From Bacteroidota bacterium (GTDB lineage: Bacteria; Bacteroidota; Bacteroidia; UKL13-3), in NCBI GenBank assembly GCA_027487835.1, contig JAIYCU010000020.1, positions 10,970-74,969 on the forward strand: a stretch of DNA of 64,000 bases, read 5' to 3'. Position numbers and translations under genes: made by a program. How positions within the stretch are numbered: the first letter of the stretch is position 1; every line of letters starts with the position of its first letter. Shown piece by piece: positions 1,785-62,432 of this stretch. The notes under the pieces were generated by a model. That model had not been told where the DNA came from. It worked only from the letters and a program-made list of their open reading frames with translations, and ran no database searches.

Positions 1785-2822
1785 ATGAAATTAACGCAGT
1801 ATTCGCACGCCTCGGGATGTGGTTGTAAAATGGCGCCTGCCGATTTAGAGAAGTTGCTGAAGGATAAGAAAATTGGAAGTTTTGATTCTTTGTTAGTAGG
1901 TAATCAAGCAAATGATGATGCGGCTGTTTGGGATTTAGGGCAAGGTAGTGCTTTGGTTAGCACGGTTGACTTCTTTATGCCTATTGTAGATGATCCATTT
2001 GATTTTGGACGTATTGCTGCAACCAATGCAATTAGTGATGTTTATGCCATGGGTGCTAAACCCATTTTTGCGAATGCAATTTTAGGTTGGCCTATTGATT
2101 TATTGCCTATAGAATTAGCCGCTAAAGTTTTGGAAGGAGCCCAACAAATCTGCGCCAAAGCTGGTATTCCGTTGGCAGGGGGACATAGCATTGATAGCAA
2201 AGAACCTATTTTTGGATTGGCAGTAAATGGATTGGTTCAAACCGAAAAAATAAAAAGAAATAGCACCCCACAAATAGGTGATTATTTATTGCTTACAAAA
2301 CCTATTGGAACAGGCATTATTGGAACTGCCATTAGAAGAGGAATGGAAAAGGAAAATCATGCGCAAATAGCCATAGAAGAAATGTGCAAACTCAATAGTA
2401 TTGGGGCCGACTTAGCAAATATTAAAGGCGTAAATGCTTTAACTGATGTTACTGGCTTTGGCTTGCTTGGTCACCTAATTGAGATGTGCGGAGAACAAGT
2501 AAGTGCAGAATTATATACTGATAGAATACCTCATTTTAATTTTTTACAAACTTATTTAGACCAAAATATTATTCCCGATAACACTTACCGCAATTGGAAT
2601 GCCTGGGATAAAAAAGTAGATGGTACTTTAGATATGAAATGGTTTCAATTGCTAAACGACCCTCAAACTTCTGGCGGACTTTTAATTGCTGTTTCCGAAT
2701 TAGATTATGAGGCTGTTAAGTTAGTTATGTTAGCGCAAGGCCTCGAGGATTTTATTCTGCCAATTGGGAGATTTATAGAAAGAAATTTGACTGCTGTATC
2801 TGTAAAAACATCGGCTTACTAG
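1785..2822 (+). CDS. selD: Selenide, water dikinase (selenophosphate synthetase), Cys-type
   Basis: N-terminal TQYSHASGCGCKMAPADL closely matches the SelD active-site motif, with Cys (not Sec) at the catalytic position; AIR-synthase-like fold motifs downstream. ATG at 1785 preferred over the TTG at 1770 that overlaps the terminator. Confidence 0.88.
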   Translation: MKLTQYSHASGCGCKMAPADLEKLLKDKKIGSFDSLLVGNQANDDAAVWDLGQGSALVSTVDFFMPIVDDPFDFGRIAATNAISDVYAMGAKPIFANAILGWPIDLLPIELAAKVLEGAQQICAKAGIPLAGGHSIDSKEPIFGLAVNGLVQTEKIKRNSTPQIGDYLLLTKPIGTGIIGTAIRRGMEKENHAQIAIEEMCKLNSIGADLANIKGVNALTDVTGFGLLGHLIEMCGEQVSAELYTDRIPHFNFLQTYLDQNIIPDNTYRNWNAWDKKVDGTLDMKWFQLLNDPQTSGGLLIAVSELDYEAVKLVMLAQGLEDFILPIGRFIERNLTAVSVKTSAY

Positions 2823-2897
2823 TTTGATACTTATTTCATAAAATGGGTACTAGCAATTTCATGTTAATTATTGCATTTATTTTTTTAATTTAGTCAT

Positions 2898-4766
2898 ATG
2901 TTTAAGAACCTATCATTCATCGCAGCATTGTTTCTTTATATCGGTTTGAACCAAACACTCTTGGCTCAAACCGAAAACAACAATGGCCTTACGTACACAA
3001 CAATTTCTAGGGTTACGGCAAAAGGTGCAACCGTAAACCTAGCAGATTTACCAATGCTGCCAGATGCAAAAATCATAAGTATTCATCCGCAGGTGGTAAA
3101 CGATCCAGTTAAACTTAAGAAATTGCAGTTAGATGCACAAAGGAAAAATAGGGTTCATCATAAATCTTTGCAAAAAAAGGCTGGTCCTTTAGCGCCTATT
3201 ATTGGTAGAAATTACACAGGTAATGTTACCCAAGGTACGCCAAATGACAATGATATGGCGGTTGGAAATAATGGAATGTTAGTGAGTGTAGTGAATCAAA
3301 ATATGAATGTTTATAATGATACTGGCAGGTATGTAATTGGTAGAACATTAGCCTCATTAGGCGCAGCCATTGGGCCGCTTAACAGAACATTTGATCCGCG
3401 TGCTATTTACGACCCAGAGCAAGACAGGTTTATAGTTGTGTTTTTGCAAGGAAGCACAAGTGAAGATACTAGAATTATTGTTGCCTTTTCAGAAACTAAT
3501 GATCCTTCTAAAACTTGGAATTTGTACGCTGTGCCTGGTAATTTTGTAGGGGATAGCAGTTGGAGTGATTATCCCATAATTTCCTTATCAAAAGATGAAT
3601 TATTTATTACCGTGAACCGCCTTAAAGATAATACTTCTTGGCAAGAAGGTTTTATGGAATCTTATATTTGGCAAATTGATAAAATGGCAGGTTTTTCGGG
3701 TGATTCCATGCCTCAACAAGTGTATCAAAATATTAAGTACAATGGTAAGCCTGTATGGAGCATTTGCCCGGTTAAAGGGGGCTCTAAATTATATGGTCCA
3801 GTTAGTTATTTTTTATCACAGCGTCCCTCTGATTTAAGTAATGATACTTTATTCATTCACGCCATAAGCAATAACTTAAAGTCAGGTGTGGCCAAACTTG
3901 AATTAAAAGTTGCAAAAGCGCCTTTGGACTATGGCTTACAGCCAAATGCAATCATGCCTAATGGCAAAAAGCTACAAACCAATGATGCGCGCGTTTTGAG
4001 TGCCATGTATGAAAATGGTGTTATCTATTATGTGGGTAATACCATTGATTTTAACTTATTTTCTCCAGCAGTTTATTTTGGAAGGGTGCACGAGGCTTGG
4101 ACAAATTCACCACGTATAGAAAGTACAATCATTTCTTCTGATACCTTAGACTTTGGCTATCCAAGTATTGCTTACGTGGGCACTGGACAAAATGGTGACC
4201 ACCGAAGCATGATAACTTTTTCTCATGTTTCACCTACGCAATTTCCGGGTACTTCTGTAGTATATGTGGATAGAGATTTTAAGGTATCTGCGCCTACTTT
4301 TGTAAAACGAGGAGAGGGCAACGTGCGCTTGTTAAACGATAGTGTAGAAAGATGGGGAGATTATACAGGAATTCAAAGAAAGTATAATGAGCTTGGAGTA
4401 GCATGGCTTAATGGCTCTTGGGGCAATGCAAATGGGCAAAATAGAACTTGGATAAGCAGGGTTAGTGCCAATGATCCAAGTTTAGGAACTACAAAATTAG
4501 CTGCATCCATTGAAGCTAAATTATACCCTAATCCAGCAGAAGAGCAAGTGTCTTTTGAGTTTGAAAGTTTACAAAAACAATTACTTACCATCTCTATCTT
4601 GGATATGAAGTCGGGCATTCAAACAGCAGTATCTGTTGAGCAAGCTAAACCTGGTTTAAACAAATTGTTGTTAGATGTGAGCCAAATGAGTAATGGCATT
4701 TATGTAATAATTTTAAGCAATGAAAAGGGTAATATTAGTAGTCATAAGTTTGTGGTGCAGCATTAG
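2898..4766 (+). CDS. Secreted hypothetical protein with T9SS C-terminal sorting domain
   Basis: N-terminal signal peptide (FIAALFLYIGLNQTLLAQ); C-terminal ~80 aa (KLYPNPAEEQVSFEFESL...GIYVIILSN) resembles the Por/T9SS C-terminal sorting domain. Confidence 0.75.
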   Translation: MFKNLSFIAALFLYIGLNQTLLAQTENNNGLTYTTISRVTAKGATVNLADLPMLPDAKIISIHPQVVNDPVKLKKLQLDAQRKNRVHHKSLQKKAGPLAPIIGRNYTGNVTQGTPNDNDMAVGNNGMLVSVVNQNMNVYNDTGRYVIGRTLASLGAAIGPLNRTFDPRAIYDPEQDRFIVVFLQGSTSEDTRIIVAFSETNDPSKTWNLYAVPGNFVGDSSWSDYPIISLSKDELFITVNRLKDNTSWQEGFMESYIWQIDKMAGFSGDSMPQQVYQNIKYNGKPVWSICPVKGGSKLYGPVSYFLSQRPSDLSNDTLFIHAISNNLKSGVAKLELKVAKAPLDYGLQPNAIMPNGKKLQTNDARVLSAMYENGVIYYVGNTIDFNLFSPAVYFGRVHEAWTNSPRIESTIISSDTLDFGYPSIAYVGTGQNGDHRSMITFSHVSPTQFPGTSVVYVDRDFKVSAPTFVKRGEGNVRLLNDSVERWGDYTGIQRKYNELGVAWLNGSWGNANGQNRTWISRVSANDPSLGTTKLAASIEAKLYPNPAEEQVSFEFESLQKQLLTISILDMKSGIQTAVSVEQAKPGLNKLLLDVSQMSNGIYVIILSNEKGNISSHKFVVQH

Positions 4767-4914
4767 TTTATTACTGTCAGCTTGCAGTGCTAGCAAAGAT
4801 GCCACCGCAGAAAAGGAAGCCACTATTCAAAATCCAGTACCTCTTACAGAATTGCAAACAGACAGTTTGAAAAATTATTTAGATAGGGAAAGACTGCGCC
4901 GCAAACAGCCTTAA
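4720..4914 (+). CDS. Possible small lipoprotein (64 aa), doubtful
   Basis: ORF with a lipobox-like LLLSAC signal; overlaps the 3' end of the upstream gene by 46 nt in another frame; could be spurious. Confidence 0.25.
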   Translation: MKRVILVVISLWCSISLLLSACSASKDATAEKEATIQNPVPLTELQTDSLKNYLDRERLRRKQP

Positions 4915-4915
4915 T

Positions 4916-6205
4916 TTAAAGGCTAATATGAATTTGAATCCAATTAAGTATAATTTGGGTAGCACCACGTTTAGATTGAATCCATTGTCTGCTATTTAAA
5001 CTTTTATTTGCCATTATGATGGCTTCCATTTCGTAAAAGTCTATCCACGCTTTTAAAGCTTTCGAATCATTAACGGTTTGCGCTAGGTCTAATGAAACCA
5101 TTTCTTTTGCTTCTGGAAATCTTCCAATTTTTGGGCCAAAACAAATTGGCATGCCAAAGCTTGCCGCTTCTAAAATATTGTGTAATCCATTTTCTTTAAA
5201 GCCACCGCCAATAAAGGCAATATCTGCATATTGGTACAAGTTTGCCAGCCAACCAATCCTATCAATCACTAATACTTTTTTATCGTTATGGGCAGCAGGA
5301 TTTGCTAATAAATCAGTTAACGAAACGGAGTTGGGTTCAAACCGAGTTAAGATTTCATTTATTCGAGAAGCTGTAGTAAAATGAGGGGCAATAATTAGTT
5401 TTCGGTTTGAACCAAAAGGTGCATTGGCTTCTATTAATAATTGTTCTTCGATGGAATAGCTACTGCCTGTTAAGAGCAGGAAGTTATTGTCTTTAAATGC
5501 TTCAATTACTGGTATAGAAATGGCTTGTTCTATGTGCTGGCTTACCCTGTCGAAACGCGTATCGCCGCTTACCATACATTGGGTATATCCAATTGAATTT
5601 AATAAATCTACTGATGTTTGGTTTTGACAAAAAATGAAATTAAAGTATTTTAATAAGTTTCTTTGAAAAGTAGCATTTTTTTTAAAAAAGCGTTGTTTTG
5701 GTCTAAACGATGCTGAAATCAAAATTACTGGGATATCTTGTTTCTTTAGGGCGTCTAGGTATTGATACCATAAATCGTACTTTACAAAAACTGCTATTTT
5801 GGGGTTGAGGCAGGCAATTACTTTTTGTGCTATTGTTTTAGATTCAAATGGGAGGTAGTATACATTTCGGGTAAGGTCATTTTCTTTTCTTGCCAAATAG
5901 CCCGAGGGAGAAAAAAAGGTAACAACTAATTTGTAGTTTGGGTGTTTTTTCTGCAAGGCTTCCATGATAGGTTTGCCTTGTTCAAACTCGCCAAGCGAAC
6001 TAACATGAAACCATATGGAATTTAAGTGGGAGTTAGCTGAATCGGCCTGCATAGCACTAAGTGCGTTTTTCTGTCCATTCCACAGCGCCGCGGCCCTTTG
6101 GTGAAAAGGAGCCAGACACCTTAGCAATAAGAAATAAGCGCGCGTAGATAAAAGGTAAATTAATTGACCGAAGACAAAGGAAATTTTATCTAAATTGAAA
6201 TTCAT
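4916..6205 (-). CDS. waaA: 3-deoxy-D-manno-octulosonic acid (Kdo) transferase
   Basis: N-terminal TM segment then HVSSLGEFEQGKPIMEALQKKHPNYKLVVTFFSPSGY, matching the KdtA/WaaA N-terminal domain; GT30-like C-terminal half. Confidence 0.85.
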   Translation of the reverse strand: MNFNLDKISFVFGQLIYLLSTRAYFLLLRCLAPFHQRAAALWNGQKNALSAMQADSANSHLNSIWFHVSSLGEFEQGKPIMEALQKKHPNYKLVVTFFSPSGYLARKENDLTRNVYYLPFESKTIAQKVIACLNPKIAVFVKYDLWYQYLDALKKQDIPVILISASFRPKQRFFKKNATFQRNLLKYFNFIFCQNQTSVDLLNSIGYTQCMVSGDTRFDRVSQHIEQAISIPVIEAFKDNNFLLLTGSSYSIEEQLLIEANAPFGSNRKLIIAPHFTTASRINEILTRFEPNSVSLTDLLANPAAHNDKKVLVIDRIGWLANLYQYADIAFIGGGFKENGLHNILEAASFGMPICFGPKIGRFPEAKEMVSLDLAQTVNDSKALKAWIDFYEMEAIIMANKSLNSRQWIQSKRGATQIILNWIQIHISL

Positions 6206-6953: not shown

Positions 6954-7068
6954 GTATAGGCAAATATGGGAATTTCCTGAGCAATTTCGAAAAAAAAGCG
7001 CTTAATGATATTATTCATAAAAGAATATCTAATGATTTTATATTTTCGCTACAATAAATTTAAAGCTT

Positions 7069-8394: not shown

Positions 8395-8400
8395 TTAGTA

Positions 8401-9378: not shown

Positions 9379-9397
9379 ATTAACACATAAATAACCA

Positions 9398-9943: not shown

Positions 9944-9961
9944 CTTTTTTTTAAAAACTAA

Positions 9962-10918
9962 TTAATTGGGGAGTTCAGCAGGGCTGAATTCCCCAATTTT
10001 TTTTAGGTTCAATACAGTTGCGCTACCATCTGCCGAGCGCGTAAACATAGGAATAAATTTTGCGCCCCAAACAATTTCACTGGCCGTATAACTATGGCGG
10101 GTATGAACTACTTGAGAATAGGTGTCATCAAAGGCTTTAAACATTACTATTATTTCTGCTTTCATGTCTTCCAAATCTTGTTTTGTAAGGCCTGTTAATG
10201 GACTTTCTTCATTAATTGGATGCACAACGGTCCAGCTTAATGAGAGGGCATTTACTTTACTATATTCAAGGCTTAAGTTGATGAATCTGCGCATATTAGA
10301 TTCTTTGTCTAAGTAATTAAATAGCAAAGTTACCTCACATTCTATTAATTGATTTTTTCTGCCATTTGCAATTCTAAACATCAAGGCAGTCATGTTTTGA
10401 AAAGGCGCAATAATTGCGTTAGGACTATAAATTAACCTGGCCTGTGGCCTTGAGAATCTTCCATAAAGTAAACCTGTAATAAAGGCAAAACTTAATAAAC
10501 CAAAAAGTGCTTCAAATGATGCAATAATATCTGAGGCATTGCCAATGGGATTAATTCTGCCATAACCAACAGTGGTTAAGGTTTGTGCACTAAACGCACT
10601 TACTTCAATAAATTTGGTGAGGGTGTTGGATGTTTCTAAACCCGTTAATTGGTTCAAACCAACCAAATAGTAGGAAAGAGAAAATATCAAGTTAACCACT
10701 ATGAAAAAAGTAATGATTAGCCAAATGAATTGAGACCAACTCATGCTAATTAATTGATGGTATAAACTGATTCGTTCAAAAAATGACTGACCAATTCTTT
10801 CCACATTAAAATTACCATCTTTGCCAAGTAATCGGTCGCCTTGGTTATTTGCAGAGTTGCCAAAGCCCGTATATTTATCAAAGTTAAATCGTTTTTGAAA
10901 CTCGGTAAATTTAGACAT
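9962..10918 (-). CDS. Inward-rectifier-type potassium channel (KirBac-like)
   Basis: Two TM helices flanking a pore helix with selectivity filter TTVGYG; N-terminal RLLGKDGNFNVERIG slide-helix-like segment; C-terminal cytoplasmic beta-rich domain. Confidence 0.75.
   Translation of the reverse strand: MSKFTEFQKRFNFDKYTGFGNSANNQGDRLLGKDGNFNVERIGQSFFERISLYHQLISMSWSQFIWLIITFFIVVNLIFSLSYYLVGLNQLTGLETSNTLTKFIEVSAFSAQTLTTVGYGRINPIGNASDIIASFEALFGLLSFAFITGLLYGRFSRPQARLIYSPNAIIAPFQNMTALMFRIANGRKNQLIECEVTLLFNYLDKESNMRRFINLSLEYSKVNALSLSWTVVHPINEESPLTGLTKQDLEDMKAEIIVMFKAFDDTYSQVVHTRHSYTASEIVWGAKFIPMFTRSADGSATVLNLKKIGEFSPAELPN
9966..10004. terminator. Bidirectional rho-independent terminator (lies inside the 3' codons of the K+ channel gene)
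   Basis: 14-bp stem TTGGGGAGTTCAGC / GCTGAATTCCCCAA with loop AGG, followed by T8. Confidence 0.65.
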
Positions 10919-10936
10919 GCTGTTGAATTATTAAGA

Positions 10937-11587
10937 TTATGATTCAATTGTTTTTAGAATGATTTCACTAATTTCTTTTCCTCTTTCTACAATCATCCAA
11001 TGGCCTCCATTATTAATTAAATGATAAGGAGTGGTAATGTTATTGACAGGAAAAATACGGTCTTTATTCCCATGAATATGAATAATGCTTGGCATTGCTT
11101 CTTCGCTCTTCCAAGATAAGATTGCACCAATGGCCCAATCTAAAAATTCAGGGTCTGTTTCGTCAATTGTTTTGTGTAATGCCCGTCTAGAAATATCATC
11201 TTTTACACTAAAAAAATAGTTAGCAGTAAGGTGGTTCAACCTTTTTAAAGAACTCACAGAAATCACTTTATGTAAAGGTATGAGTCGAGCCAATTTAATA
11301 CCAAAGCTAAGTTGCTTGCTTGTTTGCACACTCGAAATAATGATGCACTTTTTTACCTGAAATTGTTTTGCAATTTCTTTTGCAATCATTCCGCCCATAG
11401 AGAGACCAATAACTATTGCCTCTTCATTGGGTACAAAATAATGTTTCACCAATCGCTGGGCATAATTTGCCAAGCTTTCTTTTTTTATCGGTTTGATCCA
11501 ATCCATGATGATGAAAGGATGGTGTTGCAAATTTAGATTCTTAAAAACTTTTGCATCTGCTCCAAGGCCTGGTATAAGGTAAATCAT
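10937..11587 (-). CDS. Alpha/beta-hydrolase fold protein
   Basis: GLSMGG nucleophile elbow, 216 aa, PGLGAD N-terminus. Confidence 0.6.
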   Translation of the reverse strand: MIYLIPGLGADAKVFKNLNLQHHPFIIMDWIKPIKKESLANYAQRLVKHYFVPNEEAIVIGLSMGGMIAKEIAKQFQVKKCIIISSVQTSKQLSFGIKLARLIPLHKVISVSSLKRLNHLTANYFFSVKDDISRRALHKTIDETDPEFLDWAIGAILSWKSEEAMPSIIHIHGNKDRIFPVNNITTPYHLINNGGHWMIVERGKEISEIILKTIES

Positions 11588-11590: not shown

Positions 11591-13621
11591 TTAGTTAATA
11601 AATTTTTCAAGTTGTCCTTGAAGGGCAAACATTTCATCTCTTAGCCTCGCTGCTTCCATAAACTCTAATTCTTTTGCCGCTCTCATCATTCGTTTTTGAA
11701 CCTCGGCAATTGCTTTTTCTAATTGTGGCTTATTCATATTTTGAATAATAGGATCAGCTGCAATATTTATTTCTTCGTTTTCAATATAAGCTGTTTTAGA
11801 ACCTCCCGATAGCATGTCCGCTACACTGGTTTGGTGCATAATTTCTTCGGTGCTCTTTTTTACAGTAGTAGGAGTAATGCCATGCAGAAGGTTATGTGCT
11901 ATTTGTTTGTCTCGTCTTCTATAATTTTCGTCAATGGTTCTTTGCATGCTATCTGTAATTTTATCAGCATACATAATTACTTTACCGTTTTGGTTTCTTG
12001 CAGCGCGGCCAATCGTTTGGGTTAAGCTTCTTTCGTTTCTTAAGAAGCCTTCTTTATCTGCATCCATAATAGCCACCAAACTTACTTCCGGTAAGTCGAG
12101 GCCTTCTCTTAATAAATTAACTCCAATGAGCACATCAAACTTCCCTAAACGTAAGTCTCTTAAAATTTCAACCCTGTCAATGGTTTTAACTTCACTATGA
12201 ATATACCTGCATTTAACGTTTACTTTAGTCATGTATTTACTAAGTTCTTCTGCCATTCTCTTGGTTAAGGTAGTTATTAAAATTCGGTCGCCCATTTTAA
12301 TACGTTCATCAATTTCATCTAGTAAATCATCCACTTGGTTCAAACAAGGTCTTACTTCAATGGTTGGGTCAAGCAAACCTGTAGGTCTAATTAATTGTTC
12401 CACTACAATACCTTCAGATTCTCTAATTTCATACTCGGCGGGGGTTGCACTTACAAAAATTGTTTGAGGAATCATTGCTTCAAATTCGTTGAATTTTAAA
12501 GGTCTATTGTCTAAGGCTGAGGGAAGTCTAAAACCATATTCTACCAAACTTTCTTTTCTACTTCTATCACCCCCATACATCCCTCTTACTTGGGGTATCG
12601 TAGCGTGGCTTTCATCTACAATGAGTAAAAAATCCTTAGGGAAATAGTCAATTAAACAGAAAGGTCTATCACCAGAATTACGTTGATCCATATACCTGCT
12701 GTAATTTTCAATGCCGCTGCAATAACCTAGTTCCCTTATCATTTCAAGGTCGAAGTTGGTTCTTTCTTCAAGGCGTTTGGCTTCAATAAATTTTCCTATC
12801 GACTTAAAGTAATCTATTTGTTTAACCAAGTCGTCTTGAATTTCTCTAATGGCTCTTTGAAGTTGATCTTTTGGTGTTACATAAATATTTGCAGGAAAAA
12901 TCGCAATGTATTCAACTACCTCAATTTTTTTACCGCTAACAGGTTCAATAATGGATAGTTCTTCTACTTCATCACCAAAGAAATTAATTCTAAAGGCATA
13001 ATCTGCATAAGCAGGAAATACATCCAATACATCACCCTTTACCCTAAAGTTTCCTCTCTGAAAATCTGCTGTGGTTCTGCTATAAAGTGAGTCAACCAAT
13101 TGGTAAAGTACTTTATTTCTAGCTATAACTTCTCCTCTTTTGAGACGCACAATACTACTTGCATAATCTTTAGGATTACCAGCACCATAGATACAACTTA
13201 CCGAGGCGAGTACAATCACATCTCTTCTTCCGCTTAATAAAGATGAAGTAGTTTTTAAACGTAATTTTTCAATCTCATCATTAATTTGCAAGTCTTTTTC
13301 TATATAGGTATTTGAACTAGCGATGTAAGCCTCTGGCTGGTAATAATCGTAATAGGAAACAAAATATTCCACTGCATTGTCTGGAAAAAACTGTTTGAAC
13401 TCACCAAACAATTGCGCCACTAAGGTTTTATTATGGCTGATTATTAAAGTAGGTTTTTGAACTTTTTCAATTACGTTGGCCATGGTAAAAGTTTTACCAG
13501 AGCCTGTAACGCCAAGTAGCACTTGTGCCCTGTCGCCGCGTTCAATGCCTTCTATTAAATTTTTAATGGCATGGGGTTGGTCGCCGGTTGGCTGATAGGG
13601 TGATACTATTTTAAATTCCAT
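11591..13621 (-). CDS. uvrB: Excinuclease ABC subunit B
   Basis: FKIVSPYQPTGDQPHAI...GVTGSGKTF Walker A motif; helicase motifs; C-terminal UvrB/UvrC interaction coiled coil. Confidence 0.95.
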   Translation of the reverse strand: MEFKIVSPYQPTGDQPHAIKNLIEGIERGDRAQVLLGVTGSGKTFTMANVIEKVQKPTLIISHNKTLVAQLFGEFKQFFPDNAVEYFVSYYDYYQPEAYIASSNTYIEKDLQINDEIEKLRLKTTSSLLSGRRDVIVLASVSCIYGAGNPKDYASSIVRLKRGEVIARNKVLYQLVDSLYSRTTADFQRGNFRVKGDVLDVFPAYADYAFRINFFGDEVEELSIIEPVSGKKIEVVEYIAIFPANIYVTPKDQLQRAIREIQDDLVKQIDYFKSIGKFIEAKRLEERTNFDLEMIRELGYCSGIENYSRYMDQRNSGDRPFCLIDYFPKDFLLIVDESHATIPQVRGMYGGDRSRKESLVEYGFRLPSALDNRPLKFNEFEAMIPQTIFVSATPAEYEIRESEGIVVEQLIRPTGLLDPTIEVRPCLNQVDDLLDEIDERIKMGDRILITTLTKRMAEELSKYMTKVNVKCRYIHSEVKTIDRVEILRDLRLGKFDVLIGVNLLREGLDLPEVSLVAIMDADKEGFLRNERSLTQTIGRAARNQNGKVIMYADKITDSMQRTIDENYRRRDKQIAHNLLHGITPTTVKKSTEEIMHQTSVADMLSGGSKTAYIENEEINIAADPIIQNMNKPQLEKAIAEVQKRMMRAAKELEFMEAARLRDEMFALQGQLEKFIN

Positions 13622-15382: not shown

Positions 15383-15673
15383 ATGGCAACAACTAAAAAA
15401 GCTAAAAAAGCAGCGCCAAAGAAAGCTGCAGCTAAGAAGGCAGCAACTAAGAAGGCTGCTCCTAAAAAAGCAGCAGCTAAAAAAGCTGCAACTAAGAAAG
15501 CAGCTCCTAAGAAAGCAGCAGCTAAAAAAGTGGCAACTAAAAAAGCAGCTCCTAAGAAAGCAGCTAAAAAAGCAGCTACTAAAAAAGCGGCTCCTAAGAA
15601 AGCAGCTACTAAGAAAGTTGCAACTAAGAAAGCTGCTCCTAAGAAAGCTGCTGCAAAGAAAGCTTCAAAGTAA
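15383..15673 (+). CDS. Histone H1-like, Lys/Ala-rich DNA-binding protein
   Basis: 96 aa made almost entirely of KKAA(A/T/P)KK repeats, like the eukaryotic H1 C-terminal tail and bacterial Hc1/AlgP-type proteins; the DNA is a tandem ~18-nt repeat array. Confidence 0.75.
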
Positions 15674-20752: not shown

Positions 20753-23149
20753 TTGACGGTTTCAAGAGTTATAGAAAATAAATTGGCTTTTAATCAAATC
20801 ACGGATTTGGTTATTGCCCGCTGCTTATCACCTATGGGTGTTGGATATGCACAAAAAGTAAGATTCATAAATCGCTTCGATTTAATAGAAAAATTGCTAT
20901 TACAAACCAAAGAGTTTAAAAGTGTATTGCAGGAGCGACTCCCTTTTCCAGATCAAAATTATTTAGACATTGGTCCTTGGTTGTACAAAGCCAGAATCGA
21001 AGGGGTTTGGTTATTGGAAGAGGAACTTCATCAAGTGCGGTTAACGGTTCAAACCTTTTTACATATTGCAAAATTCTTGCGCGAGCGAAATGGTTTATAC
21101 CCCAATTTAGAAGCCTTAATGGAAGGGCTTTTAATTAATGATTTAGTAATTCGCAGAATTGATAAAATCCTAGAGCCAGAAGGTAAGCTTAAGGCGAATG
21201 CCTCGCCAGAATTGTCTAAATTATCCCAAAAAATAAACGAAAAGGAGTCAGAAATCAGGAGAAAAACCCAAAAGTTATTTGATAAGTACCAGGATTTGGG
21301 CTACCTCGCTGATAATATTGGTGTGAGCATTAGAGAAGGCAGAATGGTGCTACCTGTTTTGGCAGAGCATAAAAGGCATGTAAACGGCTTTATGCATGAT
21401 GAATCTCAAACGGGTCAAACAGTCTATATTGAGCCAACAGATTGTTTTGATCTTAATAATTTCTTGCGGGAATTACAAATGGCTTACAGAAGAGAGCGTG
21501 AAAGAATCTTGCTTGAAACCACAGACCAATTGCGCCCTGAGATTCCAGAATTAGAGAAAAATCAACTGCGTCTAGGCTTGTTTGATTTTGTTCGTGCAAA
21601 GGCCTTATTAGCCATCGAAATGAAAGCGGATATGCCAATTCTATCAAGGCATCCTGGTATAAATTACTTACAAGCGTATCATCCATTGCTAAAGATGAAT
21701 CATGATAGACAAGGACTAAAAACGGTTCCATTGTCGGTAAGCCTTTCAAAAGATTCGCATATCATGGTTATTTCTGGTCCAAATGCAGGCGGTAAATCTG
21801 TTTGTTTAAAAACCATTGGGCTTTTGCAATTTATGTTGCAATGTGGTTTTTTGATTCCTTGTGATGCCGCAAGCGAGCTTGGTATTTTTAAAGATATTAT
21901 GGTTGATATTGGCGATGAGCAAAGCATCGAAAACGACCTAAGTACTTATAGTTCACACCTGCTGAGCATGAAAAATTTTACAGAGTTTGCAGATGCCAAA
22001 ACATTATTTTTAATTGATGAATTTGGTACTGGAACTGACCCTCAATTTGGTGGACCCTTAGCAGAGGCTATCTTACATCATTTAACTAGAAAGAAAGCAT
22101 TTGGGGTGGTTACAACCCATTTTAGCAACCTTAAGAATTTTGCCAACCATACCCCAGGATTACTAAATGCATGTATGTTGTTCGACCATGAAGCCTTGCA
22201 ACCTTTATATATTTTAGAAACTGGAAAACCAGGCAGTAGCTATGCGTTTGAGCTTGCTGTTAAGTCTGGTTTGAACCAACAAATTATCAACTACGCCAAA
22301 AACAAAGTGGGCGATAAACAAAGGAAAGTAGAAGAGTTATTGGTAGAATTGGAGCGTGAAAAGCAGCATGTTAATGAGTTGCGCATTCGTTTTACAGAGA
22401 AAGAAGAGAAATCTGAAGCTATGCTTTTGAAATACGAAACCTTAACCAATAAGTTTGAGGCTGAGAAAAAGCAATTACTTAAAAAAGCAAAGGAAGAGGC
22501 ATTAGCACTGGTTGCGGAAGCCAATAGTAAAATTGAGGCTACCATTCGAGAAATTAAGCAAGAACAAGCTAGCAGTGAGGTGCAAAGAAAAGCTCGAACC
22601 TTGGTAAAGGATGAGATTCAACAATTGAAAGAAGCTGTTGGCGAGGCTACTGAAGTTATTCAAAGCAAAACGGAAGGGATTTTGAGTTTAGGCAATATTC
22701 AGGTAGGTGATATGGTACGCGTAATCGGACAAGAAACGCCGGTAAAAGTGATAGAATTACAAAAAAACAAAGCAGTTGTTGGAATGGGGGATTTGCGAAG
22801 CACTGTTGCTTTACAAAAACTTGAAAAATTTTCTTCTGACCAAGAGCAAGTTGTAAAACGACTTGCTCCTAAAGGGATTGACTTTAATGCGAAGATGCAG
22901 CACTTTTCTTCGGAGCTTAATGTGATAGGTACGCGCGGTGAAGAGGCTTTGAAACAATTGGATGATTACCTTGATGATGCTTTAATTTTAGGCATCAAAC
23001 AAGTAAGAATTGTGCATGGAAAAGGATATGGTATTTTAAGGAAGCTTGTAAGAAATTCTTTAAAACTTAATAAGCGTGTTGAAACATTTCAAGATGAACA
23101 TGTTGAATTAGGCGGAGATGGGGTTACAATTGTTACCTTAAAGGTATAA
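20753..23149 (+). CDS. mutS2: Endonuclease MutS2 (MutS domains III-V plus C-terminal Smr)
   Basis: Walker A GPNAGGKS, central coiled-coil region, C-terminal Smr domain (VIGTRGEEAL...VRIVHGKG). Confidence 0.92.
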   Translation: MTVSRVIENKLAFNQITDLVIARCLSPMGVGYAQKVRFINRFDLIEKLLLQTKEFKSVLQERLPFPDQNYLDIGPWLYKARIEGVWLLEEELHQVRLTVQTFLHIAKFLRERNGLYPNLEALMEGLLINDLVIRRIDKILEPEGKLKANASPELSKLSQKINEKESEIRRKTQKLFDKYQDLGYLADNIGVSIREGRMVLPVLAEHKRHVNGFMHDESQTGQTVYIEPTDCFDLNNFLRELQMAYRRERERILLETTDQLRPEIPELEKNQLRLGLFDFVRAKALLAIEMKADMPILSRHPGINYLQAYHPLLKMNHDRQGLKTVPLSVSLSKDSHIMVISGPNAGGKSVCLKTIGLLQFMLQCGFLIPCDAASELGIFKDIMVDIGDEQSIENDLSTYSSHLLSMKNFTEFADAKTLFLIDEFGTGTDPQFGGPLAEAILHHLTRKKAFGVVTTHFSNLKNFANHTPGLLNACMLFDHEALQPLYILETGKPGSSYAFELAVKSGLNQQIINYAKNKVGDKQRKVEELLVELEREKQHVNELRIRFTEKEEKSEAMLLKYETLTNKFEAEKKQLLKKAKEEALALVAEANSKIEATIREIKQEQASSEVQRKARTLVKDEIQQLKEAVGEATEVIQSKTEGILSLGNIQVGDMVRVIGQETPVKVIELQKNKAVVGMGDLRSTVALQKLEKFSSDQEQVVKRLAPKGIDFNAKMQHFSSELNVIGTRGEEALKQLDDYLDDALILGIKQVRIVHGKGYGILRKLVRNSLKLNKRVETFQDEHVELGGDGVTIVTLKV

Positions 23150-30387: not shown

Positions 30388-30788
30388 AGAAATCTGTCTT
30401 TATTTTCAGCACTTGGCATAGGGCAAACATCATATTTCCCAAACCATCGATATCTATGGGCTGCTACCCAATTATACATTTTGCGTGTAGTTGTTTTAGG
30501 CAATATTTTTCCAATACAAATAAGATTAGCAGGAAATCCTAGAATTTGTGCAATTTTAAAAGCAGCATTATCATATTGAAATACCTTTTTTTTATAAATC
30601 AATACGATTGAATCTTGGGCTTCATCTATTTGGTTCAAACCGAGAGATGCTTTGCCAATGCTTGACTGTAAGGCGGCGAAATGGAATTTTTTTTTTCTGT
30701 CTAGCTTTATAATAATTTTAACAAAGCCATTACACAAAGCGCAATGACCATCATAAAGCACTAAAATTTCTATTGCTTCCTTAGCCAT
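30384..30788 (-). CDS. DCC-family thiol-disulfide oxidoreductase (DUF393)
   Basis: LVLYDGHCALCNGFV, the CxxC motif of the DCC1-like family. Confidence 0.75.
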   Translation of the reverse strand: MAKEAIEILVLYDGHCALCNGFVKIIIKLDRKKKFHFAALQSSIGKASLGLNQIDEAQDSIVLIYKKKVFQYDNAAFKIAQILGFPANLICIGKILPKTTTRKMYNWVAAHRYRWFGKYDVCPMPSAENKDRFL

Positions 30789-39707: not shown

Positions 39708-40925
39708 TTATTTTTTTACAGGATTTCCCTTCATTGGGGTTTTATAGATGATGGCACTATCTAGTTTTCCACCATTTGATTTGTCATTTGACATAGGTGT
39801 TTGGGGTTTTAATATGGCTTTATATTTTATAGAATCTTGTTTAGTTAAGGTTCTAATAGCTGCAATGCTATCCAATTGCCTTTTCATAGGATTTGTTTCT
39901 TGCGGGATTCCATTATTACCAGCTTTTTGAGGTAATAGGATTCCACTTGGTATAATTCTGGCGCCAAAGTTTTGCGAACCTTTTATGCGGGGCGCTATCA
40001 GTACATATTGATTATTTTTTGTAAAACAAAGGTCCTTAATTCCAATTTCCTCATCCAGCCATTTACTGATAAGTTTACCCGTTTCAGATTCCCAAACGCG
40101 CACGGAACCATCATTACAGCCTGTTATACAGTATTTACTGTCCTCAGTAAACCCAACTGACACTACCTTCCAACACTCAGTATTTAAAACAAACAATGTT
40201 TTCATGGTTTTTAAGTCCCAAATTCTAGCACTTTTATCATTTGAACCACTGATTAAATATTTATTGTTTGCGCTCATTGCTAAACAATTTACCACATCAG
40301 TATGCCCATCTAAAGTTCTCACTAATTTGCCAGTGGCCAAAGCGAAAATTTTTATTTGTGGGTCGCTATGAGCTATAAATATGTTGGCAGGACTAGGGCT
40401 CAAACATAAATCTTGGATTGAATTACCTGTTAAATAGTGTCTTACCGATTTTTTATTGGCAAGGTCCCACATAATCAATTTTCCATCCTTGTCTCCGCTA
40501 AATAGAAATTTTCCACTTCTGTCGAATAAAACGGCATGCACTGCGGTTTCATGTTTGTTATTTCCCCCTTCACTTAAGGGTACAAAGCGGTATAGGCTAT
40601 CATATAATCTAACTGTTTGGTCGCTAGAACCGCTGGCAAACATATTTCCTGCGAAGTTGTAGCATAAAGCATTAACTGGGGCTTGGTGTCCTATTAATTT
40701 TTGAACCAAGGTATATGGACTGTCGCTTTGGTAGATTAAAATTTCATTGTCCCAACCTGCAACTGCCATGCGTTTATATTTAGCCGGACTCATAGCGCAG
40801 GTATTCAAATCATTCCTTGCACCTTGCAATACAATCGGGATAATTTCTTTGCTTTCTTGCGCTAGAACCAGGGTTTGGTTCAAACCGAAAAGTAAAATTA
40901 TACTTGAATAGAAATATTTGAGCAT
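39708..40925 (-). CDS. Secreted WD40-repeat beta-propeller protein
   Basis: Signal peptide LLFGLNQTLVLAQ; at least six WD40 units (for example GHQAPVNALCYNFAGNMFASGSSDQTVRLYD, KDGKLIMWDL, GSNDKSARIWDL). Confidence 0.75.
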   Translation of the reverse strand: MLKYFYSSIILLFGLNQTLVLAQESKEIIPIVLQGARNDLNTCAMSPAKYKRMAVAGWDNEILIYQSDSPYTLVQKLIGHQAPVNALCYNFAGNMFASGSSDQTVRLYDSLYRFVPLSEGGNNKHETAVHAVLFDRSGKFLFSGDKDGKLIMWDLANKKSVRHYLTGNSIQDLCLSPSPANIFIAHSDPQIKIFALATGKLVRTLDGHTDVVNCLAMSANNKYLISGSNDKSARIWDLKTMKTLFVLNTECWKVVSVGFTEDSKYCITGCNDGSVRVWESETGKLISKWLDEEIGIKDLCFTKNNQYVLIAPRIKGSQNFGARIIPSGILLPQKAGNNGIPQETNPMKRQLDSIAAIRTLTKQDSIKYKAILKPQTPMSNDKSNGGKLDSAIIYKTPMKGNPVKK

Positions 40926-49333: not shown

Positions 49334-49381
49334 GGTTCAAATATGCTTATTTTTTTATTAGGTTTGAACCAAACATAGATT

Positions 49382-51553
49382 ATGAAAAAACAATTTATAC
49401 TAATCGTTTTTACTTTATTATTTGCATTTGGGTCAAACAGCCAAACTAAAATAACTTTAGAAGATATATGGACCAAAGGAACTTTTTCTGCCCGCGGCGT
49501 AGCTGGTTTTAACTCTTTGAAAGATGGTAGATACTATTGTAATTTAGATGATGAACAAAATCTCTTGCGTTATGCTTTTGCAAGCGGAAGGGTAGTAGAT
49601 ACCTTGGTTAAGATTAGTGAGGTGAAAAAAGCAAATGGCGGTTTGAACCTAAGTATTAGTAATTTTAGTTTTAGCGAAGATGAATCTAAACTTTTGATTG
49701 CAACTGAAACAGAAGCAATTTACAGACATAGTAGTCAGAGTATTTTTTATGTGTTTGATTTGCAAAAGAAAACCTTACTAAACCCAATAAAAGATAAGGT
49801 GCGTTATGCCACACTTTCGTCAGATGCGTCTAAGCTTGCCTTTGTAAGAAACAATGATTTGTATTACTATGATTTTAGGTTGAACCAAGAGTTTAGAATT
49901 ACCAAGGATGGAAAAGATAATGAGGTGATAAATGGTGCAACTGATTGGGTGTACGAAGAAGAGTTTGCCATTTGGAAAGGATTTTCTTGGAATGGAAGTG
50001 GCGATAAAATTGCCTTTTATCGGTTTGATGAAAGCAAGGTGCCACAGTTTGAAATGACCATGTATGGAACCTTATATCCTAAACAAGATAAGTTTAAATA
50101 TCCTAAAGCTGGCGAAGCCAATTCTTTGGTAAATATTTTTGTATATGACCTGAAAACAGAATTGATTACTGAGATTGAAACTGGAAAAGAAACAGATATT
50201 TATTTGCCGCGTATGCAATGGACTCAAAACAACGAGGTGCTTTGTGTGCAAAGATTAAACCGTCTTCAAAATAAATTAGAGTTGCTTTTGGCTGATGCAA
50301 AAAATGGCAAATCAAAAGTAATTTATACAGAAACCAACCCATATTATATAGATATTACCGATAACTTAACTTTTTTAAATGATGGGAAGTCCTTTGTGTT
50401 TACAAGCGAACGTGATGGGTTCAACCATATTTATCTTTTTGATTTGAATGGCAAACTTCAAAAGCAATTAACCAAAGGCAATTATGATGTAGATGAGTTT
50501 TTAGGGGTAGATGCCAAAAATAAAATGGTTTACTATTCTTCATCTGAAGTGAATGCTGCCGAACGCTATATTTATGCTATTGGATTGAATGGAAAAAATA
50601 AGGCGAAGTTGAGCAATGGAAAAGGCTGGCATAATGCCTACTTTAATTCAGATTACTCTTTCTACCTAGATGTGTTTAGCGATATCAATACACCTCCAGT
50701 ATATGCTTTGTTGAACCGAAAAGGCGAAACAGTAAGAGTGTTAGAAGATAACAATGCCTTGCGTGAAAAATTAAAATCTTACCAAATTGCAAAAGCAAGC
50801 TTTGCTGAGATGCAAAATGAAGTAGGCGATAATATGAACTATTTTAGCATTTTACCTAGCCAGTTTGATAGCACAAAAAAATATCCTGTTTTAATGTACG
50901 TGTATGGGGGTCCGGGTAGCCAAACAGTGATGAATCGCTGGAGTGGGGCCAATTATTTTTGGTATCAACATTTGGCGCAACAAGGGTACATCATTGTTTC
51001 GGTAGATGGCAGAGGTACTGGTTTTAAAGGCGAGAAGTTTAAAAAATGCACTTATCTTAACTTGGGTAAGTTTGAAATAGAAGACCAAATTTATGCAGCC
51101 AAGCAGTTGGCACAACTTCCTTTTGTAGATGCAAACCGTATAGGCATTTGGGGTTGGAGTTTTGGCGGTTATATGGCAGGCCTAGGCATAAGCAAAGGAA
51201 ACGATGTTTTTAAAGCAGCCATATCTGTGGCACCTGTAACCAATTGGCGCTATTATGATAATATTTATACAGAGCGTTTTATGCGCACCCCACAAGAAAA
51301 CGGTAAAAATTACGACGACAATTCACCGATGAATCATGTAGAGAAAATCAAAGGTAATTATCTCATTATACACGGTACTGCAGACGATAATGTGCATTTT
51401 CAGAATGCAGTAGAGATGGTTGACCAAATGATTAAAAAGGGTGTTAGGTTCGACTCTGAATTTTATCCTAATAAAAACCATGGCATCGGCGGCTCAAGGG
51501 TAAGGCTTCATTTATATGAAAGAATGACAAGGTTTTTGGTTGAGAAGTTGTAA
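49382..51553 (+). CDS. Dipeptidyl-peptidase IV (peptidase S9B)
   Basis: Signal peptide, DPP-IV N-terminal beta-propeller, catalytic GWSFGGY serine motif, C-terminal Asp/His. Confidence 0.9.
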   Translation: MKKQFILIVFTLLFAFGSNSQTKITLEDIWTKGTFSARGVAGFNSLKDGRYYCNLDDEQNLLRYAFASGRVVDTLVKISEVKKANGGLNLSISNFSFSEDESKLLIATETEAIYRHSSQSIFYVFDLQKKTLLNPIKDKVRYATLSSDASKLAFVRNNDLYYYDFRLNQEFRITKDGKDNEVINGATDWVYEEEFAIWKGFSWNGSGDKIAFYRFDESKVPQFEMTMYGTLYPKQDKFKYPKAGEANSLVNIFVYDLKTELITEIETGKETDIYLPRMQWTQNNEVLCVQRLNRLQNKLELLLADAKNGKSKVIYTETNPYYIDITDNLTFLNDGKSFVFTSERDGFNHIYLFDLNGKLQKQLTKGNYDVDEFLGVDAKNKMVYYSSSEVNAAERYIYAIGLNGKNKAKLSNGKGWHNAYFNSDYSFYLDVFSDINTPPVYALLNRKGETVRVLEDNNALREKLKSYQIAKASFAEMQNEVGDNMNYFSILPSQFDSTKKYPVLMYVYGGPGSQTVMNRWSGANYFWYQHLAQQGYIIVSVDGRGTGFKGEKFKKCTYLNLGKFEIEDQIYAAKQLAQLPFVDANRIGIWGWSFGGYMAGLGISKGNDVFKAAISVAPVTNWRYYDNIYTERFMRTPQENGKNYDDNSPMNHVEKIKGNYLIIHGTADDNVHFQNAVEMVDQMIKKGVRFDSEFYPNKNHGIGGSRVRLHLYERMTRFLVEKL

Positions 51554-55922: not shown

Positions 55923-55925
55923 GCT

Positions 55926-57434: not shown

Positions 57435-57461
57435 TTTCCCACAAACCATATTTTTAAGAAA

Positions 57462-57493
57462 GGGGCTTGGGTCAAACCGAGCCTCTTTTTTTT
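57462..57493 (+). terminator. Rho-independent terminator
   Basis: GGGGCTTGG-gtcaaa-CCGAGCCTC (two G-U pairs) followed by T8. Confidence 0.65.
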
Positions 57494-57504
57494 ATACTTG
57501 TACC

Positions 57505-58227: not shown

Positions 58228-58230
58228 ATG

Positions 58231-59349
58231 TCAAACGTTTAGCTTTTTCATCAGGTTTTGAATAATCCCGGTCCAGCTGTAGGTTTCAAAAAATTGTATT
58301 GGTAATGGGTTTCGGTTTGAACCAAAATGCGTTTGAACCAATTGAATGAAAGCGTCCCAATCTTGGTCTTTGGCAACTTTTAAATGATCGCCACAAACAT
58401 TAGGGTTAATTCCTTCTGCACCTGTTGTCGTTGAAATTACAGTTTGTCCTCTTCCTAAAGTATCAATGGCTTTGGTTTTAACTCCACCGCCGCTTAGAAT
58501 AGGATTAATCATAACATCTACACCATCAATATAGGTTTCTATATCTTCTACAAAGCCAAGGTAATGAATGTTTTTTATGGCAGCTAGGCCTTGAACCAAC
58601 TCTGAAGGTAAGTTCTTGCCACAAATAAGAATGCTAAACTGCTCTCCCATTTGTTGCTTTAAACGAGGGTAAATCTCATCTTTAATAAAAGCCACTGCAT
58701 CGTAATTGGGTTTATAGCTTAAGGTTGCAAAAAACAACAAAAGCTTATGTTCTGCTAGTAGTTGATGCCGCTCAAGCAGCAACTGGCGTGCGTTTACAAC
58801 CTTAGTAGGTAATTCACTTTGTGGAATTCCATATGGGGTGAGTAAGGTTTGGTTCAACCCTAAACCAAATTGTGTAATGGCTTTATGTTGGTCTATATCA
58901 CTTACAAAAATCACCAAATTACTTTGTCTGTAAACAAATCTTTCATAAACATAAAGTAGGCGCCACCAGGGTTTTCCCATGCTCTTAAAACGCAGGTATT
59001 CTATATTGTTGCTTCTAATAAAAACTTGTTTGCCAGTAAACCATTTAAAGAAAGGAATCATCCAACCCATCCAAGGTTGGTCAAAAAAAATGGCATCTGC
59101 CTTAAATTGCTTTATTTTGGTCAAGAGTTTAGGCAATAAAAAAATATTGGCATACCTACTTTGCTTAAAGCGCATGCCAAAGTCTATTTTAAAACTAAAG
59201 TCTTTTTTGTCTATAGGTTTATAGGGGTCAACCGTAAACACCATCATCTCATTCACCCTTGCCATATATTCCAAAATATTTTGGGTAGATATTTCACCAC
59301 CAGTAGTGGCAGGCAAAAAGGGATAGGAGATGATGGCGTAAATTCTCAA
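58231..59349 (-). CDS. Glycosyltransferase family 4 (GT-B fold)
   Basis: C-terminal GGGVKTKAIDTLGRGQTVISTTTGAEG matches the GT4 EX7E-region motif. Confidence 0.75.
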   Translation of the reverse strand: MRIYAIISYPFLPATTGGEISTQNILEYMARVNEMMVFTVDPYKPIDKKDFSFKIDFGMRFKQSRYANIFLLPKLLTKIKQFKADAIFFDQPWMGWMIPFFKWFTGKQVFIRSNNIEYLRFKSMGKPWWRLLYVYERFVYRQSNLVIFVSDIDQHKAITQFGLGLNQTLLTPYGIPQSELPTKVVNARQLLLERHQLLAEHKLLLFFATLSYKPNYDAVAFIKDEIYPRLKQQMGEQFSILICGKNLPSELVQGLAAIKNIHYLGFVEDIETYIDGVDVMINPILSGGGVKTKAIDTLGRGQTVISTTTGAEGINPNVCGDHLKVAKDQDWDAFIQLVQTHFGSNRNPLPIQFFETYSWTGIIQNLMKKLNV

Positions 59350-59367
59350 GTTAATTGAAATTCAATT

Positions 59368-60852: not shown

Positions 60853-60871
60853 GGGATTGGTTTTATAAGAT

Positions 60872-61771: not shown

Positions 61772-61885
61772 GTATCAAAAATTGCGATTTAACTAAGTAT
61801 GCAAGTATAAAATTATAATTTCAAAAAACCTTTTTTAACGCCATTTTTTGATGAATAACAATTAAAAGTTTTGTTATTTTGAGCG

Positions 61886-62419
61886 ATGAGTACAATTGCA
61901 CTTCACCAGCTAAATTTTAATAAATTTATAGATAAAGAAACTATCCAAAATAGGATAATAAGTTTGGCCGCAGAAATTACCCAAGAAATGCGAGACGAAA
62001 ATCCATTATTTATTGTGGTTTTAAATGGCTCCTTCATCTTTGCAGCCGATTTGTTGAGGCATCTTGATTTCGCCTGTGAAATTGAATTCGTAAAAGTTAG
62101 CAGCTACGCTGGCACCCAAAGCACAGGCGTGGTTAAACAAGTGATAGGGTTAAATCAATCCATCGAAAATAGATCCATTATTATCCTAGAAGATATCATC
62201 GATTCTGGATTAACCATTGATTTTTTACTTCAGGACTTGTCTCGGTTCAAACCGAAAGAAATTAAAATTTGCAGTTTGTTATTAAAACCAGAAGCCTTAC
62301 TTGTAAAGCTTCTGGTTCATTATATTGGCTTTGAAGTTGCCAATGATTTTTTAGTAGGATATGGCTTAGATTATAATGGACTTGGTAGAAATTTACCGCA
62401 TATTTATAAAGCGGTTTGA
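61886..62419 (+). CDS. hpt: Hypoxanthine phosphoribosyltransferase
   Basis: IIILEDIIDSGLT PRPP-binding motif; 177 aa. Confidence 0.9.
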   Translation: MSTIALHQLNFNKFIDKETIQNRIISLAAEITQEMRDENPLFIVVLNGSFIFAADLLRHLDFACEIEFVKVSSYAGTQSTGVVKQVIGLNQSIENRSIIILEDIIDSGLTIDFLLQDLSRFKPKEIKICSLLLKPEALLVKLLVHYIGFEVANDFLVGYGLDYNGLGRNLPHIYKAV

Positions 62420-62432
62420 ACCTAGCGTTTGC

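Follow-up and report, generated by a model that had tools for sequence, protein, structure and literature searches.

The 64-kb stretch of DNA analysed here (hereafter the window; positions 10,970 to 74,969 of contig JAIYCU010000020.1 in the Bacteroidota assembly GCA_027487835.1) carries a 10-bp word, GGTTTGAACC, in many copies scattered through genes and intergenic regions. An initial annotation of the window had drawn attention to this word and had offered three readings of it: a DNA-uptake signal, a Chi-like site or a very abundant binding site. The locus thus raises the question of whether the excess is real and, if so, what kind of element the word represents. Our analysis, which drew on this 64-kb section of the source genome and on ~0.43 Mb of related DNA, tentatively points to an uptake-signal-like element, of the kind that goes by the name of DNA uptake sequences (DUS) among Neisseriaceae, and of uptake signal sequences (USS) among Pasteurellaceae, which would be new for Bacteroidota. 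To this reading, in which uptake, competence and a receptor are all presumed from the behaviour of the word, we give slightly less than an even chance.

Abundance of the word in the window

Exact GGTTTGAACC is present 14 times in the window, seven times on each strand and at exactly the coordinates listed in the initial annotation, whereas 100 dinucleotide-preserving shuffles yielded 0.10 ± 0.30 copies. When up to one mismatch was allowed, 42 matches were found against 4.11 ± 2.04 expected. The 28 one-mismatch matches, where ~25 had been announced, occupy 27 positions, the palindrome GGTTTAAACC at 30112 being counted twice; ~4–6 of them are expected by chance, the likeliest candidates being the variants altered at positions 4–6 of the word (8446, 30112, 34969 and 52919). 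Some coordinates given earlier for such variants were displaced by one to three bases: those reported at 25411, 43793, 57470, 26298 and 30808 actually start at 25408, 43794, 57469, 26297 and 30806.

A count against a Markov expectation, which had been suggested as a check, was performed on the window with an order-3 model and gave an excess for GGTTTGAACC (14 vs 0.25), CGGTTTGAACC (10 vs 0.03) and TCGGTTTGAACC (8 vs 0.01). In a ranking of words of 7 to 12 bp under this model, all top words derive from the GGTTTGAACC motif. The wider form of the word is given here as tttCGGTTTGAACCAA, with GGTTTGAACC as its core; the wider form TCGGTTTGAACCAA occurs six times against 0.00 expected, and one 16-mer, TTCGGTTTGAACCAAA, occurs three times. 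Altogether, the motif is over-represented 50–900-fold. A position weight matrix (PWM), seeded from the 10-mer and refined on the window (24-nt scoring frame, site threshold of 14 bits), detected 43 sites in the 64 kb, corresponding to 1 site per 1.43 kb and ~0.7% of the window DNA.

An excess of this kind could be produced by a dispersed repeat family, such as miniature inverted-repeat transposable elements (MITE) or repetitive extragenic palindromes (REP), or by a recurrent peptide motif or codon bias. The refined consensus is tttC-GGTTTGAACC-AA, ~12–16 bp in length, and the information content of the PWM is ~0 outside positions −3 to +12. The flanks of the copies have only A/T richness in common, and a repeat search detected no family longer than ~35 nt around them, the similarities of 70–84% identity that it returned reflecting this A/T richness. 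Therefore, the copies are independent oligomers and not members of a single MITE or REP family, an origin that the initial annotation had itself considered. In addition, 38 of the 43 PWM sites (~88%) are located within open reading frames (ORFs) of ordinary housekeeping type, 18 in the sense and 20 in the antisense orientation; the ORF calls are crude (longest ORFs), especially beyond the window. A peptide motif would suit the finding that the coding sites most often read GLN(Q) in sense frame 0 (14 of 38). However, five frame/strand combinations are used in addition to intergenic DNA, and in relatives devoid of the motif the same residues are specified by different codons. The occurrence on both strands and in several frames, the encoded peptides (GLNQ, LVQT, RFEP, GSNR and RFKP) and the dismissal of peptide motifs and codon bias as the cause were all correctly described at the outset. 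Both the repeat and the peptide or codon explanations were rejected as extremely improbable. An RNA-level explanation was also rejected, because the window contains no match to an Rfam family and the sites show no sense-strand bias.

Distribution of the word among related genomes and metagenomes

The exact UvrB protein of the source genome was detected on metagenome assemblies only (Logan SRR16126855, with a contig of 0.2–1 Mb, and SRR16126877), indicating that the organism is uncultured, and the best UvrB of a GTDB species among the matches listed shows 78% identity. In 80 uvrB loci of ~22 kb from GTDB Bacteroidota (among the matches listed), no excess of the 10-mer, of PWM sites or of the 7-mer TTGAACC was found. 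Other hyper-abundant 9-mers were likewise at noise level in these 80 loci, with 5–7 copies vs 0.2–0.6 expected among ~131,000 words.

Closer relatives, each represented by 12–22 kb, were reached through homologues of MutS2. In these genomes, where 0.04–0.27 PWM sites per 10 kb are expected, we found 8.9 sites per 10 kb in L323 (88% MutS2 identity), 6.3 in L324 (85%), 3.2 in L327 (71%), 6.5 in L326 (70%), 3.6 in L328 (69%), 2.2 in L325 (69%) and 2.7 in L329 (67%). The window and these seven genomes form one clade with two sub-clades in a neighbour-joining analysis of the single gene for MutS2. In a deeper relative, L330 (GCA_046296495.1, JBKBLB010000002.1, 22 kb; 63% MutS2 identity), the 7-mer TTGAACC alone is enriched (22 vs 5.4), and a T-rich 5′ flank takes the place of CGG. 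The version of the word in L330 could be ancestral or could represent a dialect. No enrichment was found in L331 (65% MutS2 identity), in which TTGAACC occurs 8 times vs 8.0 expected. RE-14apr17-15 and Jr-23apr18-60 are also motif-negative. Metagenome-assembled genomes in which the motif is present include GCA_945898275.1, GCA_027488765.1 and GCA_002256395.1, and it is likewise borne by the JGI contig Ga0643544_0000026. Thus, the motif is clade-restricted and of graded strength, and is absent from the 81 other Bacteroidota loci sampled (the 80 GTDB loci and L331). A possible dialect in L325, TTAAACCAAA, was rejected, as its five copies have no shared wider context.

A scan of metagenomes with the 17-mer TTTCGGTTTGAACCAAA yielded at least 120 loci. 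Among the 120 listed, 46 are motif-rich, all with a G+C content of 30–39%, and nearly all of these represent distinct, non-overlapping regions. After masking of the seeds, the metagenome loci still contain 52 copies of GGTTTGAACC vs 1.16 expected, the density in the motif-rich loci being biased upward by their choice for several copies. Long low-GC metagenome loci are clearly bimodal in motif content. Clustering of the word near a single landmark, as with parS-like sites, was rejected because the 46 loci are unrelated and show the same density. Among the viral contigs of IMG/VR, in which the phages of this clade may be unrepresented, the 17-mer was found twice and no locus was motif-rich; a 14-mer scan of the viral contigs returned chance singletons only.

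Asymmetry of the word and tolerance of its positions

The outer GGTT..AACC arms of the word had been described as palindromic. This remark proved misleading. C precedes the word (position −1) in 10 of the 14 exact copies, whereas the mirror-image G at position +1 is found in 2 of the 14, and perfect palindromes are nearly lacking in the window (GGTTCGAACC, none; GGTTTAAACC, one). We examined single substitutions in two independent sets, namely the window with the MutS2-relative loci (179 kb) and the seed-masked metagenome loci (246 kb). In both sets, words altered at positions 6, 7, 9 or 10 (G, A, C and C) are not enriched (observed/expected ratio of 0–1), whereas those altered at positions 1–5 or 8 remain 3–28-fold enriched. 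Changes of the outer GG (positions 1–2) are thus tolerated (3–8-fold enriched), and changes of the outer CC (positions 9–10) are not. Because the two ends are not equivalent in this respect, recognition of the word is asymmetric and directional, with TGA-CC as the indispensable core.

A perfect palindrome, (TTT)TGGTTCGAACCAAA(AAA), recurs in some related lineages (L204:9814, L282:9459 and 10367, L293:10163 and L329:17586) and is not found in the window. It meets the indispensable positions in both orientations simultaneously and therefore behaves like two overlapping copies of the motif. Such palindromes recall the overlapping dyad DUS pairs that have been reported in Simonsiella muelleri.

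Strand, reading frame and arrangement of the sites

The asymmetry of the motif would suit a polar signal that is read on one strand, such as Chi for RecBCD or AddAB or an FtsK-orienting polar sequence (KOPS) or architecture-imparting sequence (AIMS), and exact copies, at 1 per 4.6 kb, have a density similar to that of Chi in Escherichia coli. Chi and KOPS are likewise short, asymmetric and over-represented chromosomal words; however, they are strongly strand-skewed with replication, whereas the present word is unskewed and far more over-represented. The PWM sites of the window are distributed as 24 on the plus and 19 on the minus strand, in addition to the even division of the exact copies. 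In 18 loci of 8–64 kb from motif-bearing genomes, the summed absolute difference between plus and minus sites is 38 vs 41.2 ± 7.9 under the null model, while a polarity of 75%, simulated 2,000 times, gave a summed imbalance of ~88 and no value below 54. Since each of the 18 loci is balanced, polar signals are rejected regardless of the position of the replication origin, and we consider their involvement next to impossible. Among the three readings proposed initially, the Chi-like one is therefore refuted and the uptake signal fits best; an abundant protein-binding or structural site could also account for the word.

Sense frame 2, in which the word reads TGA, is used by 1 of the ~250 sites over all data, at the stop codon of hpt. 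The copy spanning this stop codon and the variant in the loop of a terminator-like hairpin, both of which had been noted before, are indeed present (Table 1). In the metagenome loci, 24.7% of the sites are intergenic vs 12.3% of the DNA (P = 2e-6); the corresponding values in the window are 11.6% and 5.2%, a marginal difference (P = 0.07), and no intergenic excess was found in the MutS2-relative loci. By a rough count, several copies lie within the first 2–7% of their ORFs (8446, 25408, 28322 and 40877), which suggests a preference for weakly constrained N-terminal regions. The inverted pair at 2943/2963 lies within the sequence coding for the signal peptide (IGLNQTLLAQ; MFKNLSFIAALFLYIGLNQTLLAQ), a weakly constrained part, of a protein sorted by the type IX secretion system (T9SS).

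Non-overlapping sites less than 50 bp apart are mostly arranged as inverted pairs, 8 of 11 consisting of the motif followed by its reverse complement. These pairs fold into stems of up to ~19 bp with energies of −13 to −36 kcal/mol. Enrichment near terminators had been named as a sign of uptake signals. Five of the nine intergenic pairs examined start 5–12 bp after a stop codon, and one intergenic pair is located between convergent genes together with a T-run. Most sites of the motif are single copies.

Conservation of the sites and its possible causes

Conservation in related genomes proved to be above background and accompanied by turnover. In a three-way alignment of the window, L323 and L324 (75–77% DNA identity), 7 of 29 site positions carry the motif in all three genomes, and many other aligned sites have been gained or lost in single lineages. 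Of the motif 10-mers (up to one mismatch), 38–57% have a counterpart without any difference in the partner genome, compared with 9–10% of all 10-mers and 6–7% of G+C-matched 10-mers (P = 1.5e-3 to 6e-6). Copies of the motif are thus conserved 4–6 times more often than background 10-mers at ~76% DNA identity. At the GLNQ site of MutS2, the codons GGT TTG AAC CAA are kept in six lineages with 67–88% protein identity, whereas motif-poor relatives use other codons or residues, indicating that the constraint acts on the DNA. Other motif sites in MutS2 arose by synonymous or conservative changes in single lineages.

The word might alternatively be a neutral by-product of biased mismatch repair or gene conversion, similar to very short patch (VSP) repair, or of deamination or restriction avoidance of GGTTCGAACC or TTCGAA. 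The motif is the C-to-T deamination product of GGTTCGAACC, CpG is depleted in the window (observed/expected 0.63), and the lineage-specific gains occurred through single substitutions, all of which would be in keeping with such an origin. However, TTCGAA is not depleted in the window (12 vs 13.8), and GGTTCGAACC, rather than being avoided, shows an excess (18 vs 0.2, both strands counted) in some of the related metagenome loci. Deamination is unable to raise a 10–12-mer to the observed over-representation from a precursor that is not abundant, and the flanking asymmetry is tied to the orientation of the TG. Furthermore, biases of Vsr/Dcm-type repair act on contexts of 4–5 bp and have modest effects. 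Deamination and restriction avoidance were rejected on the basis of the TTCGAA count and the flanking asymmetry, and a neutral origin as a whole is improbable in our view, if less so than a polar signal.

The main alternative is a word with a selected role in the chromosome, comparable with the highly iterated palindrome HIP1 (GCGATCGC) of cyanobacteria, for example a site linked to methylation or one bound by a protein that organises the chromosome or associates with the nucleoid. HIP1 is 15–300-fold over-represented, is found in coding and non-coding DNA and is conserved between genomes beyond expectation, and its function is obscure. The present word resembles it in its near-palindromic shape, in the degree of its over-representation, in its occurrence inside and outside genes with no strand bias and in a conservation far above background, which is the argument that Xu et al. 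(2018) made for HIP1. In contrast to HIP1, which is a perfect 8-bp palindrome, the word is longer and functionally asymmetric, and its copies are arranged at gene ends in spaced inverted pairs, a hallmark of DUS and USS; a HIP1-like role predicts neither the asymmetry nor these pairs. The spacing of the sites, for which a test of periodicity had been suggested, is random-like in the window (coefficient of variation of 1.03 vs 0.97 under the null model), which is too short at 64 kb for the 10–90-kb periods of HIP1, and no candidate binding protein is known. We consider a HIP1-like role unlikely on balance, although clearly more plausible than a neutral origin. If the word does serve the chromosome in this way, it would constitute a second puzzle of the HIP1 type, in another phylum and with an asymmetric word.

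A candidate uptake signal in Bacteroidota

In its anatomy, the word matches the DUS of Neisseriaceae and the USS of Pasteurellaceae best. These elements are present in thousands of copies and make up to 1% of the chromosome; most DUS dialects contain TGA in one frame, and inverted pairs of both DUS and USS are located in terminators (Frye et al., 2013). As with DUS (GCCGTCTGAA and its dialects), the present element is a 10–12-mer with an indispensable core and tolerant positions that occurs about once per kb, or in ~1% of the DNA, on both strands and both inside and between genes. It also shares with DUS the TGA in one frame, the inverted pairs that resemble terminator hairpins, a strength or dialect graded with phylogeny and the presence of members of the wider group that do not have the word. 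With USS (AAGTGCGGT / ACAAGCGGT), it shares a short constrained core between A/T-rich flanks (here T-rich on the 5′ and A-rich on the 3′ side), a location at tolerant coding positions with some intergenic excess, terminator inverted pairs and subtypes that follow sub-clades. On the other hand, its sequence and phylum are unrelated to those of DUS and USS, and, unlike DUS, the word is near-palindromic. The DUS receptor, ComP, is a minor pilin of type IV pili, whereas transformation in those Bacteroidota that have been studied, namely Riemerella, proceeds without pilus homologues.

If the word is an uptake signal, the cells of this clade would be capable of natural transformation, and a DNA receptor at their surface or in the periplasm would bind double-stranded DNA that contains the word. 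Fragments bearing it would be imported preferentially and then recombined into the chromosome, and the resulting bias of uptake (molecular drive), along with any gain from conspecific DNA, would spread the word wherever proteins tolerate it. We propose that such a spread is the reason why the word is found in all stop-free frames, in signal-peptide regions and in intergenic DNA. Downstream of stop codons, the inverted pairs may subsequently have acquired a role as terminator-like hairpins.

Several observations weigh against an uptake signal. The sample is small (the 64-kb window plus ~0.43 Mb of related DNA), and the motif-rich metagenome loci within it were selected as described above. The near-palindromic shape would be more usual for a HIP1-like word or for the site of a dimeric DNA-binding protein, most sites are not terminator pairs, and the intergenic enrichment is inconsistent between the data sets. 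Conservation above background would fit any selected function equally. As for competence genes, the window carries cinA, which is not diagnostic of competence, without comEC, dprA or comF.

In full-text literature searches, no paper was found that mentions an ‘uptake sequence’ together with Bacteroidota, nor a relevant one for the 10-mer; the initial annotation, too, knew of no such motif in the phylum. We know of no earlier uptake signal outside Neisseriaceae and Pasteurellaceae. Papers of 2025–2026 also describe uptake sequences for these two families only. On these grounds, the element is regarded as undescribed. Natural transformation itself has been reported in Bacteroidota, in Riemerella anatipestifer and Riemerella columbina, and the machinery there consists of proteins of the outer membrane and periplasm, homologues of which are widely distributed among Bacteroidota. 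Genes for transformation in Riemerella include RA0C_RS04920, RS04915, RS02645 and RS09020. R. columbina shows a preference for its own DNA, and a search for an uptake signal in this species yielded A-rich k-mers only, with no signal identified. The more specific proposal, that the word is a genuine DNA-uptake signal read by a pilus-independent machinery of the Bacteroidota type in an uncultured, probably freshwater clade, and that it represents a third independent origin of such signals, is put forward with somewhat greater caution than the uptake-signal-like character of the element as such.

So far, sequence-specific uptake has been found only in two families of Proteobacteria, both of them host-associated. 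If environmental Bacteroidota provided a third, independent case, this would show that transformation with a preference for self DNA is a solution to which evolution has repeatedly come, and would point to a new DNA receptor in the pilus-independent competence system of this phylum. In addition, the competence of uncultured lineages could be tested with a concrete sequence, and the word could serve as a genomic barcode by which DNA of this clade is recognised in metagenomes.

Catalogue of sites and other features of the window

The window represents ordinary Bacteroidota chromosomal DNA. It contains the 3′ end of rpoC, purM, uvrB, cinA, mfd, mutS2, dnaB and holA, as well as cytochrome oxidase genes, hpt, adk and several genes for proteins with T9SS C-terminal sorting domains. 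The sites of the word are listed in Table 1. The sites detected by the PWM only have at least two mismatches and keep TTGA[AC]CC; the positions given for them are the starts of the 24-nt frame, in which the 10-mer core begins 7 nt into the frame.

Table 1. Sites of the word and other features located in the window
Feature	Position	Strand	Context
Exact copy, within TCGGTTTGAACCAA	2234–2243	−	Antisense in purM-like ORF, read LVQT
Exact copy	2943–2952	+	Sense frame 0 (GLNQ), signal-peptide region of T9SS-sorted protein; left arm of inverted pair
Variant GGTTTGAGCC	2963–2972	−	Right arm of inverted pair 2943–2972; hairpin of −17.1 kcal/mol
Exact copy	5334–5343	−	Sense frame 1 (RFEP), Kdo-transferase-like ORF
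Exact copy (TTTCGGTTTGAACCAAA)	5404–5413	+	Antisense (GSNR), same Kdo-transferase-like ORF; top PWM score (27.1)
Exact copy	10651–10660	−	Sense frame 0 (GLNQ), K+ channel ORF
Exact copy	21046–21055	−	Antisense in MutS2 (TVQT); lineage-specific, relatives differ synonymously
Exact copy	22268–22277	+	Sense (SGLNQ) in MutS2; codons GGT TTG AAC CAA same in six lineages
Exact copy	30632–30641	−	Sense (GLNQ); conserved in L323 and L324
Exact copy (TTTCGGTTTGAACCAAA)	40877–40886	−	Sense (GLNQT), near N-terminus of WD40 protein
Exact copy	49361–49370	+	Intergenic, 12 bp upstream of DPP-IV start codon
Exact copy	49640–49649	+	Sense (GLNL), DPP-IV ORF
Exact copy (TTTCGGTTTGAACCAAA)	58314–58323	+	Antisense, glycosyltransferase ORF; direct variant 16 bp later at 58330
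Exact copy	62244–62253	−	Antisense (RFKP), hpt
Exact copy	62413–62422	+	Across hpt stop codon TGA (62417–62419); sense frame 2, possible only at gene end
Terminator-like hairpin with T-run	57456–57491	+	After POT transporter gene; variant GGGTCAAACC (minus-strand GGTTTGACCC, 57469–57478) across stem and loop
One-mismatch copies (25 further, 8446–59964)	8446−, 11490+, 12337−, 14598+, 17307+, 19531−, 19960+, 25185+, 25408−, 26297+, 28322+, 30112, 30806+, 34969−, 37098+, 41769+, 42176+, 43760−, 43794−, 45839−, 48823−, 52919−, 58330+, 58851−, 59955+	As marked	30112 is palindrome GGTTTAAACC
PWM-only degenerate sites (13911–53157)	13911−, 23741−, 29173+, 36671−, 40691+, 48034+, 49423−, 49870+, 50411−, 53134+	As marked	24-nt frame starts
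Lysine/alanine-rich ORF (96 aa)	15383–15673	+	Almost wholly (A/P/T)KKAA(A) repeats

The 96-aa ORF contains a tandem repeat (15402–15668) with a 15-nt period and ~17.7 copies, and its predicted product resembles DNA-binding proteins of the histone-H1-like, lysine/alanine-rich type. The repeat word CTAAGAAAGC of this ORF also occupies the corresponding syntenic position of L324, L325 and L081, indicating that the repeat is conserved in the clade. Besides the depletion of CpG mentioned above, GpC is enriched across the window (observed/expected 1.42). Two palindromes, TCCGGA (0 vs 3.1) and TCTAGA (5 vs 12.5), are rarer than expected, possibly as a signature of restriction avoidance unrelated to the motif.

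Two further observations concern other loci. In L324, a gene for a 214-aa protein with a Kinase-PolyVal domain (12472–13116) is inserted after mutS2 in comparison with the window and L323, and represents a small strain-specific insertion. In L002 (metagenome-assembled genome Jr-23apr18-60, CANGGG010000052.1), a locus without the GGTTTGAACC motif, the 10-mer AAACACTTAA and shifted versions of it occur 13–16 times in 15.7 kb and probably form a tandem or interspersed repeat array.

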